DNA of 32,000 nucleotides, taken from the NCBI RefSeq assembly GCF_001598795.1, contig NZ_BCZP01000007.1:150001-182000 (forward strand). Direction: 5' to 3'. Within the stretch, counting starts at the first letter, position 1. Every line of letters starts with the position of its first letter. Both the position numbers and the translations under genes were made by a program. The DNA is from Delftia acidovorans NBRC 14950. GTDB taxonomy: Bacteria; Pseudomonadota; Gammaproteobacteria; Burkholderiales; Burkholderiaceae_C. Under the pieces are notes generated by a model that ran no database searches, was not told the DNA's origin, and saw nothing but the letters and a program-made list of their open reading frames with translations. Below are positions 4,926 to 22,124 of this stretch, piece after piece.

Positions 4926-5045
4926 TGCTGGTTTCGCCTGCCCCGCTCTGGCTGGTGCGGCGATTGAGGGCGTCGTACTGGATGGTGGTGCTGCTGCCAC
5001 CCGGGGCAGAGGCAGTGACTGCGGTATCGCCGCATCTCGTTCACT
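4489..5045 (-). pseudogene. Rhs/YD-repeat core remnant (orphan cassette 3), frameshifted, with no C-terminal tip
   Basis: It translates as ...TASAPGGSSTTIQYDALNRRTSQSG...SYTYDANGNRLTQAQTKGAVTSTTSYHWNAQDQLIRVDQDHGSGAQTLAQYRYNAGNLRAE. Relative to the copy near 8720 it has a 1-nt deletion (ttttct versus tttttct near 4710). A second 1-nt deletion lies near 4510 (gtgggttg versus gtgcggttg). Homology stops abruptly at about 4489. Confidence 0.8.
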
Positions 5046-5060
5046 GAATATCAGTGCATC

Positions 5061-5525
5061 CTAGCCATGAATTTCAATTAATTCCTTCAAATATTTTTCC
5101 ATAGCAACGAAATGTATGGCTGTTGCAAAAGGTCGCTTTGGATCCTGTTTTGAGTTTTCTCTAATTAAAGAGGGAATCTCCTCGTTAAGCCAGAGTTCTC
5201 GATGTGGATATATAGCATATTTTTCCCCTTCAATATCCTCAATTAACATGTGGCCACGCCAAGCATCCTCATATAGCCTATTTGAAATCAGAGAGATGAA
5301 TATAATAGCCTCATCCCCAATAGACAATTGGGCATCCCCCCACGTCCCAGGAGAGCAGACAAAATCAATTTCCCTTCCCAAAGCAGATAAATCAATTCCT
5401 TTCTGCGTCGATAATATCTCCACCACTATCGCCTTCAATACTTGAGGCTCTGGGGAACTGATAACACGAGCCACTATGACATCATGCTTTTTTACCTTAC
5501 TTACCAAAAAATCTTGATTTCTCAT
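5061..5525 (-). CDS. Candidate immunity protein for the orphan Rhs tip CT2 (no recognised family)
   Basis: 154-aa AT-rich ORF directly downstream of the CT2 toxin. Its ATG (5525-5523) overlaps the toxin's TGA (5524-5522) as ATGA. An alternative ATG lies at 5537. The protein is small and acidic, as expected for a polymorphic-toxin immunity gene. Confidence 0.6.
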   Translation of the reverse strand: MRNQDFLVSKVKKHDVIVARVISSPEPQVLKAIVVEILSTQKGIDLSALGREIDFVCSPGTWGDAQLSIGDEAIIFISLISNRLYEDAWRGHMLIEDIEGEKYAIYPHRELWLNEEIPSLIRENSKQDPKRPFATAIHFVAMEKYLKELIEIHG

Positions 5526-7198
5526 TCCGGCTTCCATGGCATACCCAATTTCTCCAATAATGGCATGTAGTTTCTCATATTACCCGTCGCCTCTGGTATA
5601 GGTATACCAATACTCATTGGAAATGTCGCACAATTGAATGTGCATGAATTTTTCCCGGGGAAACCATACATAGCATTATTCATCGGACTATTTATTCCGA
5701 TTGCATTATGCGCTGATTTTATCATATCAAATTGCTCATGAGACATAGGAATCCTATGTTCTATTACCGCCCGAGGAACACCACCTCGGCTAGCAGCGCT
5801 GCTGTTAGCAATTGATCGGAAAATAGCCGTGTCATCCGTGATAACTCCGGGATAACTTGCACCATTTCTTAGCAACTGCACCGCTTCAAAAGCAGAGATG
5901 CCATCAGGCATTTTTGGCCCAAATCCATAAATGGTTTTTCCTCCATCAAATGAATAACCAACATGCCCGGTTACAACATAAGGATGAGGCGCATCTACAG
6001 CCATCAAATCTCTAGTAGAGCCTGCACCTCGAAAGCCAAAAAGGCTGACTGTTGGAACCTCTGTGTTTGAGGGCACTTCGCTTGCTGAGCTGTGTGTCCG
6101 AGCATCATTCCTCACAGCCTGAGCAGTCTTGCTCACCGACTTCCATTCCCCAGCCGCCCGAAGCCTTGGCCCTTCGGCTACCAGTGTCGGCGTTGTGTCG
6201 CTCACCTCTGGCCGGACTTTTGCCGCTTCTATGGTCGGCGTCTTCGCCGCCAGCACAGGCTCCGTGGTTTGGAGTTCCTTTGCCAGTGCTCTTGCTACCG
6301 TCCTCCGATCCAGGCTGCTTTTGATGGCATTTGCCAGAGGTACCGATCCGGCCCCCAACGCACCACCCACGGCCGCCGAAGTTGCCGTTTGCTGCAGGTC
6401 ATAGCCGCTCTGGATGCCACCACCCATGTGCGCCGCCTGTGTGGCAGCATCGCCTGCCGCGCCGCTGCTGGCTCCTACAACAGCAGCCACTGCTACTCGT
6501 CCTGCGGTGCTGCTGGCTGCGCCCACCAAGGCACCTCCAGCAGCTCCAGTAGCCACGTTCAGTCCCGCCACGGCCAGGCCGCCGCCCACGCCTGCACCCC
6601 AATACTGGCCTTGGCTGATCTTGCCTTCGTCGTAGGCATCTCGCATGGGGTCGTGCACGCTGGCAAAGCCCAGCGTGGAGGCCACGTATAGGCCTTTGCC
6701 CAGGGCGTAGAGGGCGCAGGTGAAGCGGCCACATCCTTCTGCAGCGTTGTCGATCAGGGTGGAGGTCGACTGCTCCCCATTCGGATCCACATACCGATAC
6801 GGGTTGTACCTGCCGTACTGGTAAGCACCCCAGGTAATCGGCAGCCTCGCCTCACCCTCCACCGGGTCACGGCTGATGAACTGGCCGCTGGCCGGGTCGT
6901 AGTAGCGTGCCCTGGCGTACAGCAGGCCCGTTTCCGGGTCTGCGTAGTAGCTTCCGAAGCTGTGGCCGTTGCTCTTGAGGCCTACGCCCGCGTTGCCGCT
7001 GGCTTTGCTGTCCACGCTGCCGTAGGCGCCGTACAGCAGCAGGCTTTCGGCCTTGGCCGTGCCGCCTTCGCTGGCAACGGTGGCCACCAGGTTGCCGTTG
7101 CTGTCCGCATGCAGTTGCGTGGTGCTGCTGGTGCTGCCCAGGCCGTTGGCGTATTGCGTGCGGTTGAACAGCCAGGGGGCGGTGTTGCCAGCCAGCAC
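5522..7198 (-). CDS. Orphan Rhs cassette 2: RHS repeat-associated core end plus a 416-aa polymorphic C-terminal tip (CT2)
   Basis: The core end (...YYDPASGQFISRDPVEGEARLPITWGAYQYGRYNPYRYVDPNGE) carries the PxxxxDPxG motif that marks the Rhs core/tip boundary at 6773. The frame is open up to a TAA near 7412, and the first possible start in it is GTG 7198. Diverged, frameshifted YD-repeat homology continues to about 7505, a few nt below the previous cassette's stop. Confidence 0.75.
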   Translation of the reverse strand: MLAGNTAPWLFNRTQYANGLGSTSSTTQLHADSNGNLVATVASEGGTAKAESLLLYGAYGSVDSKASGNAGVGLKSNGHSFGSYYADPETGLLYARARYYDPASGQFISRDPVEGEARLPITWGAYQYGRYNPYRYVDPNGEQSTSTLIDNAAEGCGRFTCALYALGKGLYVASTLGFASVHDPMRDAYDEGKISQGQYWGAGVGGGLAVAGLNVATGAAGGALVGAASSTAGRVAVAAVVGASSGAAGDAATQAAHMGGGIQSGYDLQQTATSAAVGGALGAGSVPLANAIKSSLDRRTVARALAKELQTTEPVLAAKTPTIEAAKVRPEVSDTTPTLVAEGPRLRAAGEWKSVSKTAQAVRNDARTHSSASEVPSNTEVPTVSLFGFRGAGSTRDLMAVDAPHPYVVTGHVGYSFDGGKTIYGFGPKMPDGISAFEAVQLLRNGASYPGVITDDTAIFRSIANSSAASRGGVPRAVIEHRIPMSHEQFDMIKSAHNAIGINSPMNNAMYGFPGKNSCTFNCATFPMSIGIPIPEATGNMRNYMPLLEKLGMPWKPE

Positions 7199-7400
7199 GG
7201 CTGCGTCGGTGTCGCTGTGCAGGGTCTGGGTGTTGTCTGTCCCGCGAATCTCGAAGCTGCGGCGGGCGTGCAGTCCATCCCACTGGATGCGCTCATACGC
7301 CAGCGGGCTGTAGGTGGCCGTGCGGCCTTGCGTGGCTTTGTTCAGGCCCGCGTTGCTGAGGAATTTTTCTGCACGCAGGTTGCCTGCGTTGTAGCGGTAT
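6773..7400 (-). repeat. rhs core direct repeat, copy B
   Basis: Aligns to 8130-8757 at a constant offset of 1357. About 6867-7265 appears identical, because the off-frame ORFs 6867..7283 and 8224..8640 give identical peptides apart from the first residues. Confidence 0.9.
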
Positions 7401-7517
7401 TGCCGTGATCCTTATCTACGCTGACTAGCTGGTCAGGGCCGCTGTCGCGATAGTTCAGCGTAGTTGCAGCACCAGTGTCCAGATTCTGTGGCTTTTGCCA
7501 GCACTCGATTTACCCCT

Positions 7518-7937
7518 CTACTTCCTCAAAGGTAGCAAATCTCGACCATCAATTTCATAAATATCGGTACTGAAAACAACTGAGAAATTTTCAGAATTTA
7601 TGTCAACAACAGCCTTAAAAATAACAAAAACCTCATTTGACGCATTAGATATAATATAACGCTTCGCACCAGTATCAGGATCGGTTTTGACGAGAATATA
7701 TCCACCATTCCTCTCTTCCCAAGAGTCTCCCGCGCCTAGTACTGACGAAGGAATTCCTGTAAAACAAAATTCCCAAACTCCTTCACTTTTTTTGCAACCT
7801 CCATAGTTAGTAGAAGTTCTAAACCAAGAAGGCCAAGTCTCTTTTGGATAAATTCTCAGAAAACCTTCAAAGAACAGTTGAGAAGCCTTATCAAATTCAC
7901 TAGTCAAATTATCTTTCTTCACTCTAATTTCCCCCAT
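7518..7937 (-). CDS. Possible immunity-type ORF (139 aa), in frame with and embedded in the end of cassette 1
   Basis: An AT-rich block of about 470 nt (about 7518-7985) is the size of the 465-nt immunity gene of cassette 2. There is an internal ATG at 7937. No separate ORF fits between the cassette 1 stop (7518) and the start of cassette 2 homology (about 7505). No clear Shine-Dalgarno sequence. Confidence 0.25.
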   Translation of the reverse strand: MGEIRVKKDNLTSEFDKASQLFFEGFLRIYPKETWPSWFRTSTNYGGCKKSEGVWEFCFTGIPSSVLGAGDSWEERNGGYILVKTDPDTGAKRYIISNASNEVFVIFKAVVDINSENFSVVFSTDIYEIDGRDLLPLRK

Positions 7938-9686
7938 AGATTCTTGACCATTGCTTACGCATAATTTCAGACTGAATGATTGCGTCGTCTGATGGAAGCT
8001 GACCGAACGTATGATGCCCGCCGTCACCCCATATAGCGCTACGCTGCTGCCCCATCTGTTGAAGGTCAGCACAGCGAACCCTATGGCATAACCAGCAATC
8101 TTGGTCCCGCAGTCACGCCAGCGGTCGCACTCTCCATTGGGGTCGGTATACCGATACGGGTTGTACCTGCCGTACTGGTACGCACCCCAGGTGATCGGAA
8201 GCCTCGCCTCTCCCTCCACCGGGTCACGGCTGATGAACTGGCCGCTGGCCGGGTCGTAGTAGCGTGCCCTGGCGTACAGCAGGCCCGTTTCCGGGTCTGC
8301 GTAGTAGCTTCCGAAGCTGTGGCCGTTGCTCTTGAGGCCTACGCCCGCGTTGCCGCTGGCTTTGCTGTCCACGCTGCCGTAGGCGCCGTACAGCAGCAGG
8401 CTTTCGGCCTTGGCCGTGCCGCCTTCGCTGGCAACGGTGGCCACCAGGTTGCCGTTGCTGTCCGCATGCAGTTGCGTGGTGCTGCTGGTGCTGCCCAGGC
8501 CGTTGGCGTATTGCGTGCGGTTGAACAGCCAGGGGGCGGTGTTGCCAGCCAGCACGGCTGCGTCGGTGTCGCTGTGCAGGGTCTGGGTGTTGTCTGTCCC
8601 GCGAATCTCGAAGCTGCGGCGGGCATGCAGGCCGTCCCACTGGATGCGCTCATAGGCAAGCGGGCTGTAGGTGGCCGCACTGCCTTGCGTGGCCTTGTTC
8701 AGGCCCGCGTTGCTGAGGAATTTTTCTGCGCGCAGGTTGCCTGCGTTGTAGCGGTACTGGGCCAGGGTCTGCGCACCGCTGCCTTGGTCCTGGTCCACGC
8801 GGATGAGCTGGTCCTGGGCGTTCCAGTGGTAGCTGGTGGTGGAGGTGACGGCACCCTTGGTCTGCGCCTGCGTGAGGCGGTTGCCGTTGGCGTCGTAGGT
8901 GTAGCTGGTGCTGGCCGCGCCGCTGACCTGCACGAGCTGGTCACGGCCGTTGTAGCGGTAGTCCAGCGTGCCTTCAGGTGCGGAGGCACCGGTTTCCAGG
9001 CCGTTGGTGCTGCCGACAGGCGGACCCGTGGCACCGACGGTGGCGACCACGTTCTGCTGAATGCGCCGGCCTCCCGCATCCAGTTGCCAGGTGGTGCGGC
9101 GCTCGGGCGTGGTGTGGCTGGTCAGGCGGTCCTGGGCGTCGTAGGTCCAGCTTTCCACGCGGGTGCGGTTGTGGCTGGCGCTGTTGCTGCCTCCGGGCAG
9201 ATGGGCGCTTAGGGCCGCGCTGCGATTGGCGGCAGACAGGGATTCCGTTCTGCTGCTGCCGACGCGGTTGCCGTTGACGTCGTAGGTGTAGGCGGTGTCC
9301 AGGATGGTGTTGCCTGCGCCTGCCGTGGCCTGGGTGCTGCTGGTTTCGCCAGCCACGCGACCGGCCTTGTCGTAGCGGGTGCTGGTGCTGCTGCCATCGG
9401 GGTGCAGCAACTGGGTGACACGGCTGGATTTGTCGTAGCTGATGCGGGTGGTGCCGCCTGCCCCGCTCTGGCTGGTGCGGCGGTTCAGGGCGTCGTACTC
9501 GATGGTGGTGACGCTGCCGCCCGGGGCGGATGCCGTGGCGGCCGTGGTGCCGATGCGGTTGCCCTGGGGGTCGTAGCTGTGCGTGAGGCTGTTGCCCCAG
9601 GCGTCGGTGGCCTTGACGGGCCGGTTGAAGGCGTCGTAAGTGGTGGTTTCGGTACGCGTGCCCTGGCTGTCTGCCTGTGCCTGTGC
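7518..9686 (-). CDS. 5'-truncated Rhs/YD-repeat protein fragment (cassette 1) with a 203-aa C-terminal tip (CT1)
   Basis: YD repeats (TTYDAFNRPVKATDAWGNSLTHSYDPQGNRIG, TIEYDALNRRT, ISYDKSSRVTQLLHPDGSSTSTRYDKAGRV, AYTYDVNGNRV, WTYDAQDRL, SYTYDANGNRLTQ). Core end ...YNPYRYTDPNGE at 8130. Only about 520 aa of core are present, which from memory is far shorter than full-length Rhs proteins. The ORF-track extension from 9687 to 10544 is antisense to a porin fragment. Confidence 0.8.
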   Translation of the reverse strand, partial: AQAQADSQGTRTETTTYDAFNRPVKATDAWGNSLTHSYDPQGNRIGTTAATASAPGGSVTTIEYDALNRRTSQSGAGGTTRISYDKSSRVTQLLHPDGSSTSTRYDKAGRVAGETSSTQATAGAGNTILDTAYTYDVNGNRVGSSRTESLSAANRSAALSAHLPGGSNSASHNRTRVESWTYDAQDRLTSHTTPERRTTWQLDAGGRRIQQNVVATVGATGPPVGSTNGLETGASAPEGTLDYRYNGRDQLVQVSGAASTSYTYDANGNRLTQAQTKGAVTSTTSYHWNAQDQLIRVDQDQGSGAQTLAQYRYNAGNLRAEKFLSNAGLNKATQGSAATYSPLAYERIQWDGLHARRSFEIRGTDNTQTLHSDTDAAVLAGNTAPWLFNRTQYANGLGSTSSTTQLHADSNGNLVATVASEGGTAKAESLLLYGAYGSVDSKASGNAGVGLKSNGHSFGSYYADPETGLLYARARYYDPASGQFISRDPVEGEARLPITWGAYQYGRYNPYRYTDPNGECDRWRDCGTKIAGYAIGFAVLTFNRWGSSVALYGVTAGIIRSVSFHQTTQSFSLKLCVSNGQESMGEIRVKKDNLTSEFDKASQLFFEGFLRIYPKETWPSWFRTSTNYGGCKKSEGVWEFCFTGIPSSVLGAGDSWEERNGGYILVKTDPDTGAKRYIISNASNEVFVIFKAVVDINSENFSVVFSTDIYEIDGRDLLPLRK
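8130..8757 (-). repeat. rhs core direct repeat, copy A
   Basis: See copy B. It encodes YRYNAGNLRAEKFLSNAGLNKATQG...RYNPYRY(T/V)DPNGE in both copies. Confidence 0.9.
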
Positions 9687-10403
9687 CTGGGCGGCAGCTG
9701 GGGCCAGCTCACGGCCGGGCGCCACTACACCACGCTGCACACCTCGCTGGCCAGCTATGCGCTCACCGGCCTGATCTGGGGCAACGCGGCCAACTATTTC
9801 CGCGACGGCACGGTGCTGCGCGCCAGCAATTCGCTGCGCTACCAGTCGCCGAACATGGGCGGCTTCACGGTGCGCGGCATGTATTCGTTCGGCGAGGCGG
9901 CGGGCTCCAGCGTGGCCAGCCTGTACGGCGGCTCCGTGGACTATGCGGCCGGGCCCTGGGCACTGGGTGCATCGTGGATGCAGCGGCGCACCACGGCCGT
10001 GAATACCGACCGCTATGCGCTGCTGGGCGCGGCCTATGACTTCGGCGTGGCGCGCGCCGCGCTGCTGCTGTCCACGCGGCGCGACGACCTGCCTGCCGCC
10101 ACCAGCGGCCAGGGCCGTTTCTACGAGGCCAGCGTGACCGTGCCCATGGGCATGGCGGGGCAGTGGCTGCTGTCCTATGGTGCCTACCATGGACAGGCTC
10201 GCGCCCAGAGCGATGCGCGTGCGCTGAGCGTGCGCTACGACCACTCGCTGTCCAAGCGCACCAAGCTCTATGCGGGCGTGGGCCGCATCCACAACGAGGC
10301 GGGTGCCGCCTTCACCATCAACACCGCCAGCAATGCGGGGCCGGTGGTCCAGGCAGGCAGCCGGCCCAGCTCGGTGGTGCTGGGCATATCGCACGCGTTC
10401 TGA
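9687..10403 (+). pseudogene. Gram-negative porin, 5'-truncated (about 238 C-terminal codons retained)
   Basis: LGGSWGQLTAGR aligns with LGGNWGSLTMGR of the intact porin at 29885..31033. The C-terminus ...SKRTKLYAGVGRIHNE...VVLGISHAF* parallels ...SKRTAVYTQLGHIRND...INVGIRHMF*. There is no signal peptide, no N-terminal strands and no start codon. Confidence 0.8.
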
Positions 10404-10411
10404 TTGCCGGG

Positions 10412-10434
10412 GGCAGGCGCGGCCAGCGCCTGCC
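10412..10434 (+). terminator. Hairpin just after the porin stop
   Basis: Perfect 9-bp stem GGCAGGCGC/GCGCCTGCC with a 5-nt loop, 9 nt after the TGA. No following T-tract, so its function is uncertain. Confidence 0.35.
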
Positions 10435-10631
10435 ATGCCGACAGGACGGCCCGGCTGGAGTCTGGCTGTTGTAACAACCCCATGAAATCCAGGGAATATT
10501 CGCCTATTTGAATGGATTTTTCCAATCAGAAAAAGTCTGTCCAATCAGCGAATTAGGCGATTTGCAAGAGAGAAAGTTTCGCAAAAAGACAAGTGCCTGC
10601 GTGATCCGGCAAGAAAAATAAAATCCAAATG

Positions 10632-12266: not shown

Positions 12267-14057
12267 ATGAAATACCTGAAAAACATGAAGACGGGCTCCA
12301 TGTTGGGTCTGGGTTTTTCGATTCTGATTGCCATCGCGCTGTCGATTGCGCTGTATGGCCGCGCCCAGCTGGTACAGGCCTCCGATGATGTGGCCTACCT
12401 GGCCGACAAGCGGATCACCAGCCTGCTCCGGCTGGTGGAGATCAAGGGCTCGGTGGAGTTCATCTTTCGCGGCGTGCGCAGCATGGCGTTGATGGAGGAC
12501 GCCGGGGAAAAGAAGCTGGCCAAGGCCGCACTGGATGCACAGCGCCAGAAGATCGGACAGCTGATGGAGAAATTCCGCGAAGGCCTGAGCACACCGCAGG
12601 GCGTTGCCCTGTACGACAACATGAAGAACGCGCGCATTGCCTATCTGCCGCTGCTCGACCAATTCATGGAGGCGGCCACGCGCCACGACCTGCAGGCCGT
12701 CTCGGCCATGCTTGGCGAAAGCGGGGAGTTCCGCAAACGCCAGGACGCGTTCTTCAACTCCATCAATGACATCCTGGCCCACCAGCAGGTGCGCGCCACG
12801 GAAACGGCGCAGGCCTCCGAGGACAAATCCCTGGCTGCCGGGCGGCTGATGCTGTCCCTGGCGCTGGCCGCACTGGCCATAGGCGCGCTGGTGGGCTGGG
12901 CCATCACGCGGCGCATCACGGGCCTGCTGGGCGGGGAGCCCGCCTACGCGGCGCAGATCACGCAGGAAGTCGCCAGGGGCAACCTGGCGGTGGCCGTGGC
13001 GCTGCGGCCCGGTGACACCACCAGCCTGCTGGCTGCGCTGAACTCCATGCGCGCCAGCCTGGCAGACATCGTCAGCCAAGTGCGCCACAGCAGCGAATCG
13101 ATTGCCACGGGCGCCAGCCAGATCGCCTCGGGCAACGCCGACCTGAGCGCGCGCACGGAGGAGCAGGCCGCCAACCTGGAGGAAACGGCCGCCTCCATGG
13201 AGCAGATGACCGCCACCATCCAGCAGAATGTGGACACGGTGCGCAGTGCCTCGGGCCTGGCCCAGTCGGCCAGCGCCACGGCCGTGCACGGCGGCGAGGT
13301 GGTGCATGGCGTGGTCAGCACCATGGAGGACATCACGCACAGCTCGCGCAAGATCGAGGAAATCATCGGCGTGATCGACGCCATTGCGTTCCAGACCAAC
13401 ATCCTCGCGCTCAACGCCGCCGTGGAGGCCGCGCGTGCCGGGGAACAGGGCAAGGGCTTTGCAGTGGTCGCCTCGGAGGTGCGCTCGCTGGCCCAGCGCT
13501 GCGCCAACGCGGCCAAGGAGATCAAGGGCCTGATCAGCGAGAGCGTGGGCAAGGTCGCCGCCGGCTCCCGCCAGGTGGCCGAGGCCGGCAGCACCATGAA
13601 CGACATCGTCACCCAGACGCACCGCGTGGCCGAACTGATCTCCGACATCGGTGCCGCCACGCAGGAGCAGTCCCAGGGCGTGACCCAGGTCAGCGACGCC
13701 GTGCAGCAGCTCGACCAGGTGACGCAGCAAAACGCCTCCCTGGTGGAAGAGTCTGCCGCCGCTGCCGACAGCCTGAACAAGCAGGCGGCGCAGCTGGTGC
13801 AACTGGTCAGCGTGTTCCGCCTGGATGAAAGCGAGGCCCGGGCACAGGCCGTGTCCGCGCCGGTGGCAGCGGCCGTGTCGGCGCGCGCACAGACCGCCAG
13901 GCCGTCTCCCGCGCTGGCCCCAGCCGTGCCCCGTACCAAGCCCCTGCGTGCGGCAGCGGCGGCGGCCTCCAGTGCACCTATGGCGCTGCCTGCCAGGACC
14001 ACAGCACCCCGCCGCGCCACGGCGGCCGAGATGGCGGAGGAGTGGGAGCAGTTCTAG
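12267..14057 (+). CDS. Methyl-accepting chemotaxis protein
   Basis: Domain order is TM, periplasmic helical sensor, TM, HAMP, then the conserved signalling hairpin ([42 protein letters not shown]). An Ala/Pro-rich tail ends in EWEQF. Ribosome-binding site (RBS) aaaggaa lies upstream of the ATG. Confidence 0.95.
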
Positions 14058-14064
14058 AACAGGC

Positions 14065-14862
14065 TCAGCGCATCACCAGGCCGCCATCGACGAACAGTAC
14101 CTGTCCCGTCATGAAGCCGCTCAGTTCCGAGGCCAGGAACAGCACCGGCCCCGCCACGTCTTCGGGGCTTGCCAGGCGGCGCAGCGGCGTGGCGGCCATC
14201 AGCGATTCTCGGAAGGACTCGCGCGTGTCCTGCGTGCCCTGCGTGGGATAGACCAGGCCCGGCGCGACGCAGTTGACACGTATGCCCACGGGCCCCAGCT
14301 CGCTGGCCAGGTTGCGGCTGAAGGCCACCAGCGAGGCCTTGGCCGTGGTGTAGTCGTGGTAGGGCACGACGGGGTGCTCCACCAGGTTGCTGGCGATGTT
14401 GACGATGCTGCCCCGCGCGCGCTGGCGCATCTGCGGCAGCACGGCGCGGCAGACGTTGAAGGCCGCGCCCACGGCACCGTCGTACTGGGCCTGGTAGTCG
14501 CTCCATTGCAGGTCGTCGAAGCGGCGGCGGCGCTCGGGGTCGAAGGCGTAGGGTTTGAAGGCGTTGTTGACCACGATGTCGATGGCGCCCGCCTCACGCG
14601 CAATGGCCTCGGTCATGGCCTGGACGGCGGGCTGCGAGCCCACATCGGCCTTGATGGCCCAGGCATCGCCTCCGGCCTGCTTGCCCGCAGCCTGGCAGGC
14701 CGCCACGGTCTGCGCGGCGGCAGCATCGTTGGACAGGTGGTTGACCGCCACGAGGGCGCCCTCGCGCGCAAAGGCGGTGGCAATGGCCGCGCCTATGCCG
14801 CGGCCGGCGCCGGTGACCAGCACCACCTTGCCTTGCAGTCCCAGGGAAGACGGCTGTGCCAT
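14065..14862 (-). CDS. Short-chain dehydrogenase/reductase (FabG-like)
   Basis: VLVTGAGRGIGAAIA (TGxxxGxG), NNAF, and YTTAK (YxxxK). ATG 14862 lies 1 nt after the TGA of the upstream binding-protein gene. The ORF-track N-terminal extension is rejected. Confidence 0.9.
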   Translation of the reverse strand: MAQPSSLGLQGKVVLVTGAGRGIGAAIATAFAREGALVAVNHLSNDAAAAQTVAACQAAGKQAGGDAWAIKADVGSQPAVQAMTEAIAREAGAIDIVVNNAFKPYAFDPERRRRFDDLQWSDYQAQYDGAVGAAFNVCRAVLPQMRQRARGSIVNIASNLVEHPVVPYHDYTTAKASLVAFSRNLASELGPVGIRVNCVAPGLVYPTQGTQDTRESFRESLMAATPLRRLASPEDVAGPVLFLASELSGFMTGQVLFVDGGLVMR

Positions 14863-14863
14863 C

Positions 14864-15877
14864 TCATGCCCCGGGCAGCAGGCTGGTGTCCACCACGTCG
14901 GACACCTTGATCTGCCTTTGCACCATGCCCAGCGCGCGGTAGGCGTCGGCGCCCTTTTGCAGGGCGGCCAGGTCGAAGCTGCCCAGCGGCTTGCCGGCCT
15001 GCAGCGGCTGCGAAGACGCATTGCGCAGGCGGATCACGTCCAGGTTGATATCGCGCTGCGTGCCGTCGATGGCGTGCTTGCCGGCCAGCGTGGCGGCCTC
15101 CTCAGGGTTGGCCATCATCCAGGCGGCGCTGTCGCGGTAGCCCTTGAGGAAGGCGCGCAGCAGGTCCTTCTTGTCACGCAGCGTGTCCTCGCGCACCACG
15201 AACATGTCGCTGGAGATGTTCAGGTGGTCGCGCACCTGCATCACATCGACCTCGCCAATGCCTTTGCGCAGGCCCACGGCCAGGCCGGTGTCGGTGGCGG
15301 CCGTGGCATCGACCTGGCCCTGCATCAGCGGCGCGAAGTTGAGCAGGCCGGTGACGACGATGGTCACGTCCGATTCCTTGAGGCCGGCCTGGTGCAGCAT
15401 CACCAGCAGGTTCTGGCGCGTGCCGCTGGACAGGCTGTAGACGCCGATCTTCTTGCCCTTGAGGTCCGCCGGCTTGCGGATGCCCGCCGACTTGAGCGAG
15501 ACCACGTTGAACACGTTCTGCGGGTAGATGTCGTAGATGGCGACCAGCTTCTCGCCCTTGTCCAGCGCCATGAAGAAGGAGCCGGGGTCGGTGAAGGCCA
15601 CATCGGCCTGGCCGCTGAGCATGTTGCGGATGGCGTCGCCGCCGCCTGCGCCGGGCAGGTAGGCCAGCTCCACGCCCTGGGCCTTGAAGAAGCCCTTGTC
15701 GGGCTCGGCCAGGATGTTGGTGATCTCGCTGATGGGCTTGCTCCATCCGGCCAGGCGGATCTTGCCCTGGGCGGGCGCGGCGGCTGCCGAGGTGCCGGCC
15801 AGAGCCAAGCCTGCCAAGCCAGCGGTGGCGCCCAGCAGGCTGCGGCGGGTGAGGAAGGGGGATTGCGGAGTGTGCAT
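14864..15877 (-). CDS. ABC transporter periplasmic substrate-binding protein (NMT1/THI5-SsuA-like, NitT/TauT family) with a Tat signal
   Basis: MHTPQSPFLTRRSLLGATAGLAGLALAGTSAAAAPAQG (twin-arginine motif), followed by a type-2 binding-protein body. It sits next to the matching permease and ATPase genes. Confidence 0.8.
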   Translation of the reverse strand: MHTPQSPFLTRRSLLGATAGLAGLALAGTSAAAAPAQGKIRLAGWSKPISEITNILAEPDKGFFKAQGVELAYLPGAGGGDAIRNMLSGQADVAFTDPGSFFMALDKGEKLVAIYDIYPQNVFNVVSLKSAGIRKPADLKGKKIGVYSLSSGTRQNLLVMLHQAGLKESDVTIVVTGLLNFAPLMQGQVDATAATDTGLAVGLRKGIGEVDVMQVRDHLNISSDMFVVREDTLRDKKDLLRAFLKGYRDSAAWMMANPEEAATLAGKHAIDGTQRDINLDVIRLRNASSQPLQAGKPLGSFDLAALQKGADAYRALGMVQRQIKVSDVVDTSLLPGA

Positions 15878-15915
15878 GGCGCTTGGGGAAAAGGTTTCGG
15901 AAGTGTTCAGGGTGG

Positions 15916-16677
15916 TCAGGCGGCGCGCGAGCGCAGCAGCCGGCGCTCCAGCACCAGGCAGGCCTGGTACAGCAGCAGGCCCATGGCGGCGATCAGCACC
16001 AGGGCCGCAAACATGAGGGTGGTGTCCATCATTCCCTGGGCGGCAATGACCACGGCGCCCAGGCCGCGGCTGGCGCCCATGAATTCGGCCACCACGGCGC
16101 CGACCAGGGCCAGCACCACGGCCACGCGCAGGCCCGCAAGAATGGCGGGCAGACCCGTGGGCAGCTTCAGGCGCAGCAGCGTCTGCAGCCGCGTGGCGCC
16201 CAGCATGCGAAACAGCTGCAGCCGCTGGGCATCGACCTGGCGCAGGCCGGTCAAGGTGTTTTCCATCAGCGGGAAAAAGCAGATCAGCGCCGTGATCAGC
16301 ACCGTGGGCAGCATGCCGAAGCCGAACCACAGCACGAACAGCGGCGCCAGCGCCAGCTTGGGCACGACCTGGCTGACCACCACATAGGGCTTGAGCACAC
16401 GCTCGAGCAGCTCGGATTCAGCCAGGGCCATGCCCGCCAGCAGGCCGATCGCGCTGCCGGCCGCCAGCCCCAGCAGCAGGGCCTGGAGCGTCGCCCGGAT
16501 GTGCGGCCAGAAATAGCCCGTGGCCAGCCCCGTCCACAGCGATGCCGCAATGGCCGAGGGCGCCGGCAGCACCAGGGCGGACAGGCCCCATTGCCGCACC
16601 AGCAGCTCCCACAGGCCCAGCAGGACCAGCGCCAGCGCGGCGGCCAGCAGGCGGGCATGGAACAAGGACACCGTCAT
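15916..16677 (-). CDS. ABC transporter permease (NitT/TauT family)
   Basis: Hydrophobic 253-aa protein with a conserved loop (...LGATRLQTLLRLKLPTGLPAILAGLRVA...). Its ATG (16677-16675) overlaps the ATPase TGA (16676-16674) as ATGA. Confidence 0.9.
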   Translation of the reverse strand: MTVSLFHARLLAAALALVLLGLWELLVRQWGLSALVLPAPSAIAASLWTGLATGYFWPHIRATLQALLLGLAAGSAIGLLAGMALAESELLERVLKPYVVVSQVVPKLALAPLFVLWFGFGMLPTVLITALICFFPLMENTLTGLRQVDAQRLQLFRMLGATRLQTLLRLKLPTGLPAILAGLRVAVVLALVGAVVAEFMGASRGLGAVVIAAQGMMDTTLMFAALVLIAAMGLLLYQACLVLERRLLRSRAA

Positions 16678-17471
16678 GCCGCCGTCCTGTCCATGGCTGC
16701 GCGCACGCGGGCGCAGTGCTCGTTGAACGCCGGCCCGTGGCGCATGGCCTGGGTGCGCGGCGCGGGCAGATCGACCGCCATGTCGGCCACGATGCGCCCG
16801 CCGTGCATGAGGGCGATGCGGTCGCCCAGGTAGACGGCCTCGTTGATGTCGTGGGTGACGAAGAGCACCGTGGTGCCGCGCTCGCGGCAGGTGCGCAGCA
16901 GGTCGTCCTGCAGCTCGGCGCGCGTGATGGCGTCCAGCGCGGCAAAGGGCTCGTCCAGCAGCAGCAGGGGCGGATCGAGCACCAGCGCCCGTGCCAGCGC
17001 CACGCGGCTTTGCTGCCCGCCCGAGAGATGGCGCGGATGGCGCTGCGCGTGGCTGGCCAGGCCCAGTTGCTCCAGCAGCGCCAGGGCGCGTTGCTCGTCC
17101 TGCGGCGCGGGGCGCCTTTGCAGCGACACGGGCAGCAGCACATTGCCCAGCGCCGTATGCCACTCCAGCAGCGTGGGCGCCTGGAACATGAAGCCCAGTT
17201 GCGGGCCGGGCTCGGCCAGCTCGGCGCCACGCAGCAGAATGCGGCCCGACTGCGGCCTGAGCAGCCCCGCCGCCAGCTTGAGCAAGGTGGTCTTGCCGCA
17301 GCCGCTGCTTCCCAGCAGGCAGTGGATCTCACCGGCCTGCACGCGCCAGTCCACGCCGTCCACCACCGGCGGGCGGCCCGGGTAGCTGAACACCACCTGT
17401 TCGATATCGAGAAACGCCATGCCGTCAGCCCCGTCTGTGATGCCCGTCATGCCCGTCGTGCCGGTGTGCAT
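16674..17471 (-). CDS. ABC transporter ATP-binding protein (NitT/TauT family)
   Basis: Walker A GSSGCGKTT, signature LSGGQQ, Walker B LLLLDEP, H-loop VTHD. Start uncertain: TTG 17480 overlaps the LuxC-like stop, and ATGs occur at 17471, 17450 and 17420. Confidence 0.9.
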   Translation of the reverse strand: MHTGTTGMTGITDGADGMAFLDIEQVVFSYPGRPPVVDGVDWRVQAGEIHCLLGSSGCGKTTLLKLAAGLLRPQSGRILLRGAELAEPGPQLGFMFQAPTLLEWHTALGNVLLPVSLQRRPAPQDEQRALALLEQLGLASHAQRHPRHLSGGQQSRVALARALVLDPPLLLLDEPFAALDAITRAELQDDLLRTCRERGTTVLFVTHDINEAVYLGDRIALMHGGRIVADMAVDLPAPRTQAMRHGPAFNEHCARVRAAMDRTAA

Positions 17472-17476
17472 GGATG

Positions 17477-18973
17477 TCAATCCGCATACGGGGCGAACGG
17501 CTGCGCCGCCGCCTCGGCAGATTGCTCGATCTCGGTCATGCGCACCAGGTCCAGCAGGTTGAAGCGGCCGTCATGGTGCCAGCCGGCCTCGGGCATGCTC
17601 ATGGAGCCGATGGCACTGATGCGCGTGACGCCGGCCGCGCCCAGCAGGCCCGCCAGCCGGTACAGCTGCTCGGGCGATGCGGCAATCCCGGCCGTCTGCA
17701 GGTATTCGCGCTGCGCGGCCACCACGGGCACGGCGTCATCCAGGCGGTCCACACCCACCACGGCAATCGTGCGGTACAGGGCCGTGGGCGCCAGCGGCTG
17801 CAGGCTGTCGCTGTACGCCACGCTCCAGGGCGCGTCAACGGGGCCCAGCAGCTGCTGCGCGTCGCCCGACCATTCCACGGACTGCTGCCAGCGGGCCACG
17901 GCGGCGCCCTCCTCCAGCTCCAACGGCCGGCGCGCAAAGCGCCGCTGCAGGTTGGCCAGCTCGGCCGCCAGATAGTCGGCAAAGGCACGCGCAGAGACGG
18001 GGGCGCCGCGCTCCACGTAGAAGACATGGGGCGAGTAGCAGCCCTGCTGGTCGTAGCGCATCACGTCCCAGGCCGCCAGCCGCGCCACGGCGGGCGCCTT
18101 GAGCGTGTCCAGCGCCTGGGCGCCCACCATGCCAAAGCCCAGCTTGTGGCCGTGTGGCAGAAAGCGCGTGGTCACGGGCAGGCGCTGGCGCAGTGCCTGC
18201 AGCGTCTGGTTGCCGCCGTAGGCGAGCACGGTGTCGGCCTCGGCGTGGAGCGCGGCGGCTCCACCGCCATCCACGCCATCGGCGCCATCCGCCCCATCCA
18301 CCCCCCCCGCACCACTCCACCACACCACGGCCAGGCAATCGGCCAGCGGCGGGTGGACCTCGGCCAGCAGCCGCGCGAACCAGCCCGCGAACAGCGGCTC
18401 GGCGCTGGCCAGCTTGCCAATGGCCGGCGCCTTGACCAGCAGGCCGCAGACCAGGCTCCACAGGGACAGCGCAGGCACATTGCCGGCCCAGCTGTGCATC
18501 AGCAGGTCCGGCCCGAAGGCGCGCACCGCGCCGCCCTTGGGCGCGGGCTGGAAGCCGTCGAGCACGGCCGGGTTGGCAAAGTCCTCGGCCACGAAGCGCC
18601 GCAGCTGCGCGGCGCGAAAGGTCTTGAAGAAGCCCGTCAGCCCCAGGCGCACCATGTCGGCGTCATAGCCGCTGACCACGGGCAACCAGGTCTCGGCCTG
18701 GCGCCGATAGGGATCGCTGCGGTCCAGCAGGCGGGCGATGGCACGGTCGATGGCGTCGATGATCTCGGCTACGGGCATGGCCCTGAGGTGGCGGTCGGCG
18801 GCACGCCGCACGTGGGCCGCCAGCGCATGCATCTGCGGGCCGGTCAGCAGGGGCACGGAGACTTCCAGCCGCACGCCTCCGCGTTCGAAGGGCAGCACAT
18901 GCCACTGCACCTCGGCCTCGCGCAAACCAGGCAGTTCGGGCAGGTAGCCGGCCGTGATCCGCTCGATGTTCAT
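17477..18973 (-). CDS. LuxC-like acyl-CoA/acyl-protein reductase (aldehyde-forming)
   Basis: 498 aa. Contains the HSWAGNVPALSLWSLVCGLLVKAPAIGKLAS block, which resembles the LuxC AGNVP region, and a candidate catalytic Cys in DQQGCYSP. Its ATG (18973-18971) overlaps the TGA (18972-18970) of the LuxE-like gene. Confidence 0.75.
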   Translation of the reverse strand: MNIERITAGYLPELPGLREAEVQWHVLPFERGGVRLEVSVPLLTGPQMHALAAHVRRAADRHLRAMPVAEIIDAIDRAIARLLDRSDPYRRQAETWLPVVSGYDADMVRLGLTGFFKTFRAAQLRRFVAEDFANPAVLDGFQPAPKGGAVRAFGPDLLMHSWAGNVPALSLWSLVCGLLVKAPAIGKLASAEPLFAGWFARLLAEVHPPLADCLAVVWWSGAGGVDGADGADGVDGGGAAALHAEADTVLAYGGNQTLQALRQRLPVTTRFLPHGHKLGFGMVGAQALDTLKAPAVARLAAWDVMRYDQQGCYSPHVFYVERGAPVSARAFADYLAAELANLQRRFARRPLELEEGAAVARWQQSVEWSGDAQQLLGPVDAPWSVAYSDSLQPLAPTALYRTIAVVGVDRLDDAVPVVAAQREYLQTAGIAASPEQLYRLAGLLGAAGVTRISAIGSMSMPEAGWHHDGRFNLLDLVRMTEIEQSAEAAAQPFAPYAD

Positions 18974-20088
18974 GCGGCAGCGGCCTTCACGAATTCATCG
19001 ACCGCCAGCGAGCAGCCCTTGGCCGCTGCGCCCTCGGCACGCCCCAGCAACAGGAAACCGCTGTTCTCGCCATGGCCGGCCCACAGGCCCACATCCTCGG
19101 TGAGGATGGTGGTGACCGCGTTGTAGTTGGCCAGGTCGCAGTGCACGAGAATGCCGCGCTCGCCGGGCGCCACGCTGCGGCCGGTGACGGGCTCGACCAG
19201 GCGCGAGCGTATCCAGTGCGGCCCCGACTTGACCGAGGGCAGCGTGGCATTGCCGTCGTCATAGAACTGCGTGCTCAACTCGGTCATGCCGTACATGTTG
19301 ATGCAGTGGCTGCGCGGCACGCCCAGCAGCCGGGACAGGTCGGCGTAGAAATCCTCCAGCGGCAGCTCGCGCGACTGGCCCTTGTAGCCGCCCGTGTCCA
19401 GGATGCGGCTGCCCGGCGGCAGGCAAAAGCTGCGGCCCTGCTCGCGCAGCGCATCCATCACATGCACCAGGCTGAAGCTGGCGCCCAGCAGCGCATAGGG
19501 GCGGCCGCTGCGCTCGGACTCCTCCAGCACGGCGCACAGGCCGGGCATGTCCAGTCCTTCGGGGGTGAGGAAGTAGCGGCTGTCGGGAGTGCCGAATTCC
19601 GTCTTGGCCAGCGCCAGGTAGTGGGCCAGCGAAGAGTTGGGCATGGCCTGCTCGTCGGGAAAGAGGATGCCCATGGGCAGGCGCTCGTGCCCGGCCATGA
19701 AGCGCTGCGCGAAGTTGCGCGTCATCGACGCATCGTAGACATCGAGCGCGGGATGGAAGTGGCGCCCGCGCGCGGACAGTCCCTTGGCCTGGCCCGTGGT
19801 GCCGCTGGTCATGAATACGCGCTCCGTGGGCGAGGCCGGCTCGCTGCGCAGCTCCATGGCCTTGAACGCGTCAATGGGCACGGCGGGAATGTCGCTCCAG
19901 GTCTTCACATTGCGCAGCGTGGCGCCGCGCCTCTGGCAGAAGCTGCGAAACGGCGCATTCGATTCGTATTGGTAGGCGAACAGCCGCAGGGCCAGGGCGT
20001 CGAACTGCTCGTCGGTGCAGCCGTCCATGGCGATGAATGCAAGCAGATCTGCGACCAGAGAAGCCGCCTGGGGCCGGGCCTTGTCCAT
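18970..20088 (-). CDS. LuxE/PaaK-like acyl-protein synthetase (adenylate-forming)
   Basis: 372 aa from ATG 20088, with RBS gaaggaa 6-7 nt upstream. Has the adenylation motif FMTSGTTGQAKG. Its size and its pairing with a LuxC-like gene are typical of LuxE. The ORF-track extension to 20223 is rejected. Confidence 0.75.
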   Translation of the reverse strand: MDKARPQAASLVADLLAFIAMDGCTDEQFDALALRLFAYQYESNAPFRSFCQRRGATLRNVKTWSDIPAVPIDAFKAMELRSEPASPTERVFMTSGTTGQAKGLSARGRHFHPALDVYDASMTRNFAQRFMAGHERLPMGILFPDEQAMPNSSLAHYLALAKTEFGTPDSRYFLTPEGLDMPGLCAVLEESERSGRPYALLGASFSLVHVMDALREQGRSFCLPPGSRILDTGGYKGQSRELPLEDFYADLSRLLGVPRSHCINMYGMTELSTQFYDDGNATLPSVKSGPHWIRSRLVEPVTGRSVAPGERGILVHCDLANYNAVTTILTEDVGLWAGHGENSGFLLLGRAEGAAAKGCSLAVDEFVKAAAA

Positions 20089-20275
20089 GGAATTCCTTCG
20101 AGAGCTGGGACGTGATGCTCCGAAGGCTCCCCCGCCCGTGGCGCATGGGCGGCCACGCAGGGGTGCAAGCTCTTCTTCCGCCGGAATGACCCGGTTCAAG
20201 TTCTCGGGTGTGGATCTCAGCACTGGCGTGCACCCCGGAGCGGAGGGCTATCTTACAGCAGGGTCGCCAACCCCG

Positions 20276-22024
20276 TCAGGCCAGCAGGCGAACCCCAAAA
20301 CCCAACAAGGTCGCGACATACAGCAGCACCAAGGCCTTGCCCAGCACACCGGTGTTGAACCAGAAGTGGCGTGCCACGGCGAAGTCCCAGGCGCCATCGC
20401 GCACCTGCAGCTGCGGCAACCGCGCCAGGATCTCGCGCCTGAACGCGGCCTCGTCGAACAGGGGACTGCCATTGAGTCGCAGGGGAATGGCGCGAAGGCC
20501 CATCCACAGATGCTGGCGCGTGCAGGTGACGCGACTGGCATCGAATTTTCGGGTCCTGCGTGCCATGCGTACCGCGATCCGATGCCCGTCCGTGGCTATG
20601 CGCATGGTCTCCAGCTGCTTGAGCTTGCGCCAGAGCCATGCATACAGACACAGCGGCAACACGGCCAAAAGCACCAGCAGGACACCGAGCATGCCCGTTG
20701 GATCGCACGATTTGTCCGGACCGCAGTCGCGCTGGTGCAAAAGCGGCAAGAACCAGTAGACCATCCCGCCAGCGACCAGGCAATGCAGAACGCCAACCAT
20801 GGCAAGCGCACGCCTGCGCTTCACGGTACTACCCGCAAGCGCCGTGACCGAAGTGACCAACGGCTTTCCTTCCGAGGCTTGAGAAGCCTGCGCGGCGTGC
20901 TGAGACGGTGGGGGAGCCACTGCCGCGCTGCAGGCTTCGGTGTCGGCCACTTCCTGCCAGCGCTTGCCGCCCAATTGGCGCAATTCCCCTGCCTTCCAGG
21001 CAAGCCACAGTCCCAGAGCCATCAATACCCCGATGCTGCCCAGCAGGAACGAAGGCAACCGCCTGCTCCATTCATAGGACGAGCGGGCAGACGCCAGCTC
21101 GCCGCGGAATGGAGCATCCCCGAAAGGCTCCAGCACGCGGCCGTCCAGATCCACGCGATGGACGGTGAATTGGGTCATGTCCGGCAGCAACAACTCCTGA
21201 CCCACCATGGCGATGGCGTTCGGGTCCTGGTCGGGCGAAAGCGGCATCACCCGTTCAGGCTTCAACTGGGAATCCATCAACAGCAGATCTGCTCCCCGCA
21301 TGCTCGAGTCTGCCACCAGCACCCATAGACGCTGCTGGCCATCCAGCTGCATGGCGAACGGGAAGCGGCGCCCGGAACGCAGGCCCGCATATTCCACGGG
21401 AAATACGGCAGGCGCGGCCTGGGTGCTCTGTGCCGTATCGATTTGCGCAATCTGATGGCGGTTGGTATTGGCCACCCACATGCGCTCGCCTACCTGCAGC
21501 GTCTGATTCGGAAAGCGCAGGCCTTCGCTGTAGGTCTTGAGCAGCACATAGGCTTGCGCTGCACTGGAAGCGGCGTCGCGCTGGTAAACGAGAACGCGGT
21601 GATGGGATGCGTCGGAGACCACAATCTGCGCTTCATCGGCCGTTACCCGCATCCAGCGATAGCCACCGCGTATGGACAAATCGGGCAGATCCAGCGCCAC
21701 GCAGCGCTGCATTGCCAGATCGCAGCGATGCACACGTCCCTGGTCATGCGCCCAAAGCGTCTTCTCGCCAATGAACTGAAGGCTGCTGACCGATGGAGTC
21801 AAACCCAATTGCGCCAACTCCAGACGCTGCAGGCGTGTGCCCTGCCGATCAAACTGATGCAAAGCGCCATGGCTTTGAATCCACACTGTATTGCCTTGGA
21901 TTGAGGGAAGCCTGGGGCCCAATGGGTCGGGCAACAGCCAACCCCGAAAGACAAAGGCCAGGATCAACAGGCATTGCAGCCCGATCACAGCCCTGAGCCA
22001 TTTCTTGTAAACCGCCTCAGCCAT
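20276..22024 (-). CDS. Membrane protein of unknown function: N-terminal TM, NHL-like beta-propeller, TM, linker, then a TM pair plus PH-like domain plus a terminal TM
   Basis: Start at ATG 22024 with RBS GGGGGAG. NHL-like strands are present (SDASHHRVLVYQRD, VANTNRHQIAQID, FTVHRVDLDGRVLE). Hydrophobic segments are at roughly aa 10-30, 325-345, 400-420, 435-455 and 555-580. Confidence 0.65.
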   Translation of the reverse strand: MAEAVYKKWLRAVIGLQCLLILAFVFRGWLLPDPLGPRLPSIQGNTVWIQSHGALHQFDRQGTRLQRLELAQLGLTPSVSSLQFIGEKTLWAHDQGRVHRCDLAMQRCVALDLPDLSIRGGYRWMRVTADEAQIVVSDASHHRVLVYQRDAASSAAQAYVLLKTYSEGLRFPNQTLQVGERMWVANTNRHQIAQIDTAQSTQAAPAVFPVEYAGLRSGRRFPFAMQLDGQQRLWVLVADSSMRGADLLLMDSQLKPERVMPLSPDQDPNAIAMVGQELLLPDMTQFTVHRVDLDGRVLEPFGDAPFRGELASARSSYEWSRRLPSFLLGSIGVLMALGLWLAWKAGELRQLGGKRWQEVADTEACSAAVAPPPSQHAAQASQASEGKPLVTSVTALAGSTVKRRRALAMVGVLHCLVAGGMVYWFLPLLHQRDCGPDKSCDPTGMLGVLLVLLAVLPLCLYAWLWRKLKQLETMRIATDGHRIAVRMARRTRKFDASRVTCTRQHLWMGLRAIPLRLNGSPLFDEAAFRREILARLPQLQVRDGAWDFAVARHFWFNTGVLGKALVLLYVATLLGFGVRLLA

Positions 22025-22124
22025 TGAATCTCCCCCATTTTTGAATGGAGGCAAGTGTAGACAAACAAGGCATTGCGGCCATCAAAACGATGACTTCATT
22101 CGAGCGCAATTTCCAAACTGTGGA

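Follow-up and report, generated by a model that had tools for sequence, protein, structure and literature searches.

A six-gene operon of Delftia acidovorans NBRC 14950, which encodes a LuxE/LuxC enzyme pair, an ATP-binding cassette (ABC) importer, and a short-chain dehydrogenase/reductase (SDR), lies directly behind a thiamine pyrophosphate (TPP) riboswitch and is, we are nearly certain, tied to thiamine. The operon was studied in a stretch of 32,000 nucleotides of contig NZ_BCZP01000007.1 (positions 150,001 to 182,000, hereafter the window), where positions 14065-20088 of the minus strand hold six co-directional, tightly packed open reading frames (ORFs) for LuxE, LuxC, the ABC ATPase, the permease, an NMT1-type substrate-binding protein (SBP), and the SDR. 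Three independent lines of evidence make the connection to thiamine: the riboswitch, synteny with thi genes in relatives, and the affinities of the SBP. The unit as a whole is uncharacterised; under its TPP riboswitch it unites a carboxylate reductase of the Lux type with an importer of the ThiXYZ type and an SDR of the OarX type. We propose, with a probability of roughly 0.55, that it is a TPP-repressed salvage operon whose products activate an imported thiamine-derived acid, most likely 4-amino-2-methylpyrimidine-5-carboxylate (PCA), and reduce it to HMP (4-amino-5-hydroxymethyl-2-methylpyrimidine); what we infer is the identity of the substrate, how the steps are ordered, and what they yield. 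A first-pass annotation of this DNA had suggested a pathway of carboxylate import and reduction with the substrate left open. That logic stands, but the annotation had missed the riboswitch upstream of luxE, and the pathway is thiamine-regulated rather than generic.

Results

A TPP riboswitch directly 5′ of luxE

Loci were collected in a conservation scan of one genome per GTDB species, which returned 80 loci, and in a second scan, of metagenomes, which returned 80 more; individual loci are cited by their L numbers. The riboswitch surfaced when the DNA 5′ of luxE was compared in 80 loci and Rfam was then searched in E-value mode. The aligned upstream DNA of the 80 genome loci contains a near-invariant element of ∼75 nt, GCUCCGGGGUGC...CUGAGA...ACCCG..AACUUGA.CCGG......CCGGCG.AAGAAGAGC, and the window element, directly 5′ of luxE, matches the TPP riboswitch family RF00059 over the full model (1-105) with 48.3 bits and E = 1.4e-8. 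The CUGAGA and P4/P5 pyrophosphate-sensor sequences, as conserved in TPP riboswitches, are present in it. A whole-window Rfam scan at gathering thresholds gave no match because the element scores below gathering.

The riboswitch stands just 5′ of luxE, on the correct strand, in 79 of the 80 genome loci, the contig of the 80th beginning inside the operon, and a strict-pattern search recovered it in 62 of 69 other loci having upstream DNA. A covariance model built from these elements (R1) gave the window element 103.7 bits and found the element in a further 60 loci. Homologous riboswitches in the same position in L083-L089 scored 56.4-76.7 bits, above Rfam gathering. Covariation was assessed on 54 distinct sequences in an alignment fitted to the covariance model, which favours structure and replaced a MAFFT alignment that was poor in the P3 region: 97.4% of cells were paired, and 14 of 20 pairs had changed on both sides. 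None of 500 shuffles reached the observed values, and slid controls were 32-57% paired.

Between the aptamer and luxE, sequence and folding point to a leader hairpin, CCUUCGGAGC...GCUCUCGAAGG, that covers the GAAGGA ribosome-binding site, and the sequence of this hairpin recurs in Comamonas, Delftia, and Acidovorax loci. Scanning for consensus promoters and terminators gave no promoter and terminator-like sites at chance level. Locus L137 has a second, weaker match to the riboswitch model (23.9 bits, L137:1702-1780) ∼2.4 kb upstream of its main element; two ORFs of 533 and 191 aa follow it, neither with a Pfam match and both conserved in L123, L137, and L138.

Conservation of the six-gene unit

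All six genes occur in the same order in 77 of the 80 genome loci, the other three being cut contigs or having one match under thresholds, so the cluster is conserved as the unit for which the first-pass annotation had taken it. The six-gene arrangement is far beyond chance. These loci belong to Comamonadaceae (Delftia, Comamonas, Acidovorax, Paracidovorax, Diaphorobacter, Variovorax, Xylophilus, Xenophilus, and Ramlibacter), Alcaligenaceae (Achromobacter, Bordetella, and Castellaniella), and Thauera, and the riboswitch together with the six-gene string is found in 79 of 79 informative genomes of these groups, with unrelated flanks. The LuxC of the D. tsuruhatensis locus (L001) is 98% identical to that of the window. 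Only the six genes and antisense shadow ORFs recur across the 80 genome loci, with no conserved regulator or other neighbour; because nothing beyond the six genes is conserved, there is no dedicated regulator. The 80 metagenome loci include 33 with the six-gene form alone and 7-8 with a three-gene form.

Two of the collected loci stand apart. L081 (1-942 and 7535-9377) is rearranged: luxE lies ∼7 kb from luxC with a TetR gene and a sugar-type ABC system between them, the riboswitch is directly before luxC, and luxC is followed by the permease gene with no intervening ATPase gene. L006, a contig labelled Pantoea sp. 18069, carries a module 85% identical to the Comamonadaceae versions, and its label probably reflects contamination or a mislabelled assembly.

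Thiamine genes adjoin the module in relatives

Distant representatives, whose LuxC is 36-53% identical to the window LuxC, were inspected in their contigs. The gene order of L083/L084 is riboswitch-thiD-luxE-luxC-ATPase-permease-SBP-SDR-thiE-thiO-thiS-thiG and that of L085 is riboswitch-module-thiF-thiE-thiS-thiG-thiO-thiD; L086/L087 have the riboswitch with the module alone. The commonest flanking gene is thiD, which also stands directly between the riboswitch and luxE in L074 (Ramlibacter), L128, L159, and L167. Locus L126, probably from a Bacillus relative, has thiM-thiD-thiE after the SDR gene. The importer is absent in Marinococcus halophilus and Staphylococcus haemolyticus, where the string is riboswitch-luxE-luxC-SDR. 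Searches of all loci for thiC motifs and for tenA found none. The literature searched yielded no paper that links LuxC/LuxE to thiamine, and the earlier statement that no characterised pathway has this composition holds for that literature.

The S. haemolyticus locus (L089) has a second TPP riboswitch (76.7 bits) in the opposite direction, at 6554-6652 on the minus strand. It controls a gene for a PF09819 protein (YkoE-type S-component of an energy-coupling factor transporter; 5883-6455, minus strand) that is divergent from riboswitch-luxE-luxC-SDR, and a DJ-1/PfpI gene follows the SDR gene in this locus.

The SBP belongs to the thiamin/pyrimidine branch

The SBP carries a twin-arginine signal, LTRRSLLG. 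When its profile was compared with PDB, 4NMY ranked first (E = 4.7e-15, full length, ∼25% identity); this is a C. difficile SBP that was solved with thiamin bound (PMC10586155). Next came the uncharacterised 3QSL, then THI5 (2e-10), 2x7p (4e-9), and ThiY (3IX1, 1e-8), with TauA (2e-5) and SsuA (4e-4) lower. The designation of the importer as NitT/TauT-type in the first-pass annotation is sound at the superfamily level, but the SBP is nearer the thiamin/pyrimidine proteins 4NMY, THI5, and ThiY than the taurine, sulfonate, or nitrate binders. With an NMT1/THI5-family SBP, a permease, and an ATPase under a TPP riboswitch, the system has the make-up of the ThiXYZ type, and its ligand binding is predicted from sequence. 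It shares with ThiXYZ/ThiY and 4NMY the NitT/TauT-type ABC architecture, the SBP family, and the riboswitch; it differs from them in being distant and in always standing in one string with LuxE/LuxC and the SDR.

Generic uptake of a sulfonate, a nitrate-type compound, or another non-vitamin carboxylate, with no tie to thiamine, would account for the best NCBIfam matches of the transporter parts, which are nitrate, sulfonate, and taurine systems. For the ATPase these matches are nitrate/sulfonate/taurine-type ATPases, all under the cut-offs, and the scores of the other parts likewise fall far short of those families: SsuA_fam 102.6 versus 163.5 bits, taurine SBP 46.9 versus 304, SsuC 110.8 versus 347, and TauC 104.9 versus 342. 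The riboswitch is present in nearly every locus, thi genes occur in the same strings, and the SBP profile places thiamin and pyrimidine proteins above TauA and SsuA, all of which makes generic assimilation very improbable. A sulfonate/sulfoacetate reading, taken from the SsuA/TauA-like matches, was dropped in view of the riboswitch and the thi genes.

The SBP is the most conserved component of the module, with 61-81% identity where LuxC has 40-62%, and a probable Firmicute SBP is 64% identical. The difference suggests a ligand site under strong constraint or a module that has spread horizontally.

LuxE and LuxC retain their catalytic motifs

Pfam profiles confirmed that one enzyme is a member of the LuxC family and the other of the LuxE family. 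LuxC exceeds the PF05893 cut-off of 21 bits by a wide margin (Table 1) and covers profile positions 3-400 of 401, and LuxE is above the PF04443 cut-off of 24.9 bits. Among solved structures, the only real matches of both enzymes are the LuxC and LuxE chains of 7XC6, the fatty-acid reductase of P. phosphoreum. The LuxE match (E = 4e-21) aligns the acyl-cysteine motif at the C terminus, KGCSL, as well as the lysine of GGYK. In LuxC, YDQQGCYSP aligns to YDQQACFST of 7XC6, which contains Cys296 of P. phosphoreum LuxC, and the AGNVP motif is aligned too. The LuxC cysteine is invariant in 16 diverse relatives (alignment A1), and this motif and the LuxE C-terminal KGC motif are conserved across ∼160 loci (∼159 for LuxC). 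The roles of the LuxC cysteine and of the LuxE C-terminal motif are established, and the chemistry of LuxE with LuxC is specifically acid to aldehyde (PMC9157457). From their motifs, both enzymes look functional. With both catalytic cysteines conserved and the cluster kept as a unit, the enzymatic sequence proposed earlier, import followed by LuxE activation, LuxC reduction, and an SDR step, gains support.

The pair resembles P. phosphoreum LuxC-LuxE (7XC6; PMC9157457) in that the same two families stand side by side with overlapping stop and start codons and share the KGCxL motif and active-site cysteines. By analogy, the expected reaction would be acid + ATP + NADPH to aldehyde, free of CoA. 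It differs in its ∼20-25% identity and in the absence of luxA, luxB, and luxD; it is under a TPP riboswitch with an importer and an SDR, its relatives are in thiamine operons, and its presumed substrate is a small heteroaromatic acid instead of myristate. Production of long-chain fatty aldehydes or alcohols, destined for lipids or wax, by a canonical Lux-type fatty-acid reductase would agree with the Pfam placement of both enzymes. However, the scores against the NCBIfam equivalogs of luminescence LuxC and LuxE are far below the cut-offs (NF052251, 63.3 versus 750 bits; NF052244, 73.6 versus 550 bits), and the genes are linked with an importer of small solutes and with the riboswitch. A 32%-identical LuxC (L090) occurs in another context, with radical-SAM and aconitase genes and no riboswitch; it marks the edge of the thiamine-linked subfamily, and the family splits by function. 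Lipid or wax chemistry is the least credible of the explanations that we weighed. The literature on non-luminescent LuxC/LuxE leads to Aeromonas flagellin-glycosylation islands, which were set aside for their different context.

The SDR matches the description of OarX

The SDR has a TGAGRGIG motif of the NADPH type and the catalytic YTTAK; we take its Arg-containing glycine motif to be typical of NADPH-dependent carbonyl reductases. Its best NCBIfam family is NF006393/PRK08642 (264 bits), ∼70 bits over any other family, with FabG models at 175-183 bits. Every distant module has an SDR with this same best family, and two of these SDRs score above its cut-off.

OarX, known since 2002, is an orphan FabG-like SDR that is found among thi genes and behind TPP riboswitches (Rodionov et al. 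2002, as cited in PMC11223231). Oliveira-Filho, Rodionov, and Hanson (2024) proposed that oxidised thiamin products, namely PCA, 4-methylthiazole-5-acetic acid (MTA), and thiamin acetic acid, may be salvaged via carboxyl activation, an aldehyde, and an alcohol, and they named OarX as the candidate reductase (PMC11223231). They described occasional acyl-CoA synthetases among the neighbours of OarX; their text names no LuxE/LuxC, Staphylococcus, or Burkholderiales (PMC11223231). The SDR studied here matches OarX by family and by its riboswitch and thi contexts, a likeness drawn from the description of OarX rather than from OarX sequences. Both are FabG-like SDRs 3′ of a TPP riboswitch that cluster with thiD/thiE/thiM/thiOSG and thiamin transporters. 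In Corynebacterium glutamicum, however, the operon is oarX-fmnO, for which neither luxE/luxC nor such an importer is described (PMC11223231), whereas here it is luxE-luxC-SDR.

A luciferase-like monooxygenase gene (PF00296, 182 bits; L101:5478-6674, minus strand) is the divergent neighbour of riboswitch-luxE-luxC-SDR in L101 and also occurs in L099 and L108, which puts a gene of the LuxA family beside LuxC/LuxE in a thiamine setting. Its product might be the FmnO partner of OarX; as a general partner of the module it is a weak candidate, being limited to three closely related loci.

Operon layout and the remainder of the window

Each ORF was placed by Pfam on the minus strand in the family that had been assigned to it earlier (Table 1). 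The junctions were read directly from the sequence, and three are as first reported: ATGA at 18970-18973 for the LuxE stop and LuxC start, ATGA at 16674-16677 for the ATPase stop and permease start, and TGAgATG at 14860-14866 for the SBP stop and SDR start. The overlap claimed between LuxC and the ATPase (17477-17480) depends on the start codon of the latter: it is a 4-nt overlap with the TTG at 17480 and gives way to a short gap with the first ATG, 9 nt further in at 17471. Between the permease stop at 15916 and the corrected SBP start, an ATG at 15877, there is a gap of 38 nt.

Table 1. Features of the riboswitch-controlled operon in the window
Feature	Position	Strand	Basis and remarks
TPP riboswitch aptamer (THI element)	20156..20247	-	RF00059; core P1-P5, 20166-20243
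Leader/expression platform, aptamer to luxE	20089..20155	-	Sequence and folding
luxE-like adenylate-forming acyl-protein synthetase, 372 aa	18970..20088	-	PF04443, 76.9 bits
luxC-like acyl-thioester reductase, 498 aa	17477..18973	-	PF05893, 250.2 bits
ABC transporter ATPase, thiZ-like	16674..17480	-	PF00005 (ABC_tran), 115.6 bits; start codon uncertain
ABC transporter permease, thiX-like	15916..16677	-	PF00528 (BPD_transp_1), 104.6 bits
Tat-exported NMT1/THI5-family SBP, thiY-like	14864..15877	-	PF09084, 173.8 bits
FabG-like SDR, OarX-like	14065..14862	-	PF13561 (adh_short_C2), 188.9 bits

Outside the operon, the large ORFs of the window code for an RTX/cadherin adhesin, an RHS protein, an AraC regulator, a chemoreceptor, a DUF418 protein, an S15 peptidase, a tannase, and a porin. 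No luciferase-family (PF00296), other lux, or thiamine gene was found among them, in line with the absence of luxA, luxB, and luxD noted at first reading. The ends of the SDR gene and of the convergent chemoreceptor gene are 7 nt apart (14055-14067), and therefore any terminator of either must lie within the other gene. On the far side of the operon, 28 nt separate the riboswitch from the end of a predicted membrane protein of 592 aa (20276-22054, minus strand) that matches no Pfam family and that, of the loci fetched, only Delftia (L027) shares. At 5001-8000 and 7518-10544 (minus strand), a drop in G+C content to 43-51% against a background of ∼68% lies beside the RHS-repeat protein, with adjoining ORFs that lack a Pfam match; this looks like a polymorphic-toxin/immunity island.

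Discussion

We propose the following role for the operon. When TPP is scarce, the riboswitch would let the six genes be expressed, and the ThiXYZ-like importer would bring in a thiamine breakdown product in which oxidation has turned the side-chain alcohol into a carboxylic acid, PCA being the likeliest substrate. LuxE would adenylate the acid and load the acyl group onto its own C-terminal cysteine; LuxC would receive it on its cysteine and, using NADPH, reduce it to the aldehyde; and from this aldehyde the SDR would make the alcohol, HMP, which ThiD and ThiE of the cell could feed back into thiamine synthesis. Activation and reduction of an acid is favoured because the chemistry of the LuxCE pair is established and the SDR is invariably present, and conversion of PCA to HMP is preferred because thiD is the recurrent immediate partner and the SBP falls in the THI5/ThiY/thiamin branch.

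Several observations weigh against this proposal. Substrate identity is a matter of inference from sequence, and the closest solved SBP holds intact thiamin, not a pyrimidine acid. The window riboswitch scores 48.3 bits, below the RF00059 gathering score of 54.3 bits, because the optional P3a stem is absent. No TPP riboswitch was detectable (Rfam, E ≤ 0.001) in L104, L109, L118, and L161, which carry the module in six-gene or three-gene form. Two-state thermodynamic folding of the leader gave no on/off switch, the Shine-Dalgarno hairpin forming with or without the aptamer enforced. One operon, that of L126, also has thiM. Finally, PCA, MTA, and thiamin acetic acid all failed to rescue auxotrophs of C. 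glutamicum, which has oarX-fmnO (PMC11223231). This last result is not a direct test of the module, because that operon is described without luxE/luxC or the importer.

The same riboswitch-controlled salvage could instead act on MTA, yielding 4-methyl-5-(2-hydroxyethyl)thiazole (HET), or on thiamin acetic acid, yielding thiamin. These two acids are kept in play because thiamin is the ligand in the closest solved SBP and because thiM, the gene for HET kinase, is found in one operon, that of L126, directly after the SDR gene; thiazole-synthesis genes also occur in several operons, and the contexts of OarX have been judged to point to thiazole or thiamin derivatives (PMC11223231). However, the immediate partner is thiD in seven loci and thiM in one, which has thiD as well; the matches of the SBP profile also include THI5 and ThiY, which handle pyrimidines; and no thiamin kinase or pyrophosphokinase was seen beside the module in any locus. 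We regard a thiazole or thiamin acid as an unlikely substrate, though one to be taken seriously.

Slightly less probable still is a thiamine-regulated function other than carboxylate-to-alcohol salvage, such as detoxification of a toxic thiamine analogue, an aldehyde end product, or processing of a modified thiamine derivative. C. glutamicum with oarX made use of none of the five obvious oxidation products, and the true OarX substrate may be a further-modified derivative (PMC11223231); in addition, the luciferase-like monooxygenase beside the three-gene form in L099, L101, and L108 hints at extra chemistry. Yet LuxE and LuxC specifically convert acid to aldehyde, every locus has after them an SDR of the NADPH type that reduces carbonyls, an importer that depends on a binding protein suggests that its ligand is taken up to be used, and the setting among thiD, thiE, and thiM points to feeding synthesis.

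Reductive salvage by way of HMP would have a counterpart in the salvage of base-degraded thiamine by TenA and YlmB. That route, reportedly described by Jenkins and co-workers in 2007, runs from N-formyl-4-amino-5-aminomethyl-2-methylpyrimidine (FAMP) through 4-amino-5-aminomethyl-2-methylpyrimidine (AmMP) to HMP. There, too, a damaged pyrimidine fragment is imported by a ThiY-type system and made into HMP for ThiD. The TenA/YlmB route is hydrolytic, using a deformylase and an aminohydrolase, whereas the module would be reductive, consuming ATP and 2 NADPH and acting on a fragment that has been oxidised instead of hydrolysed; tenA was not found in the neighbourhood of any module.

Thiamine is expensive to synthesise and is exchanged as a currency within microbial communities. 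The operon brings an importer, ATP-dependent activation, thioester reduction, and aldehyde reduction together in one string, and we give even odds that oxidised thiamine acids (PCA, MTA, or thiamin acetic acid) have in this module the reductive route of salvage that has long been missing. The 2024 genetic study of OarX used an organism whose oarX operon, as described, is without the activating pair and the importer. Hosts of the module are culturable and genetically tractable (Delftia, Comamonas, Acidovorax, Achromobacter, Bordetella, and Staphylococcus haemolyticus), and the candidate compounds are cheap and commercial. Such a route would be the first physiological role of LuxC/LuxE outside luminescence and lipid chemistry and would argue against annotating these genes as 'acyl-CoA reductase' and '3-oxoacyl-ACP reductase'. 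If the proposal is true, it would give a function to the OarX-type SDR, unexplained since 2002, and Lux-type two-protein carboxylate reductases would have a widespread non-lipid role in vitamin recycling in Burkholderiales, Rhodocyclales, and Firmicutes, including staphylococci.

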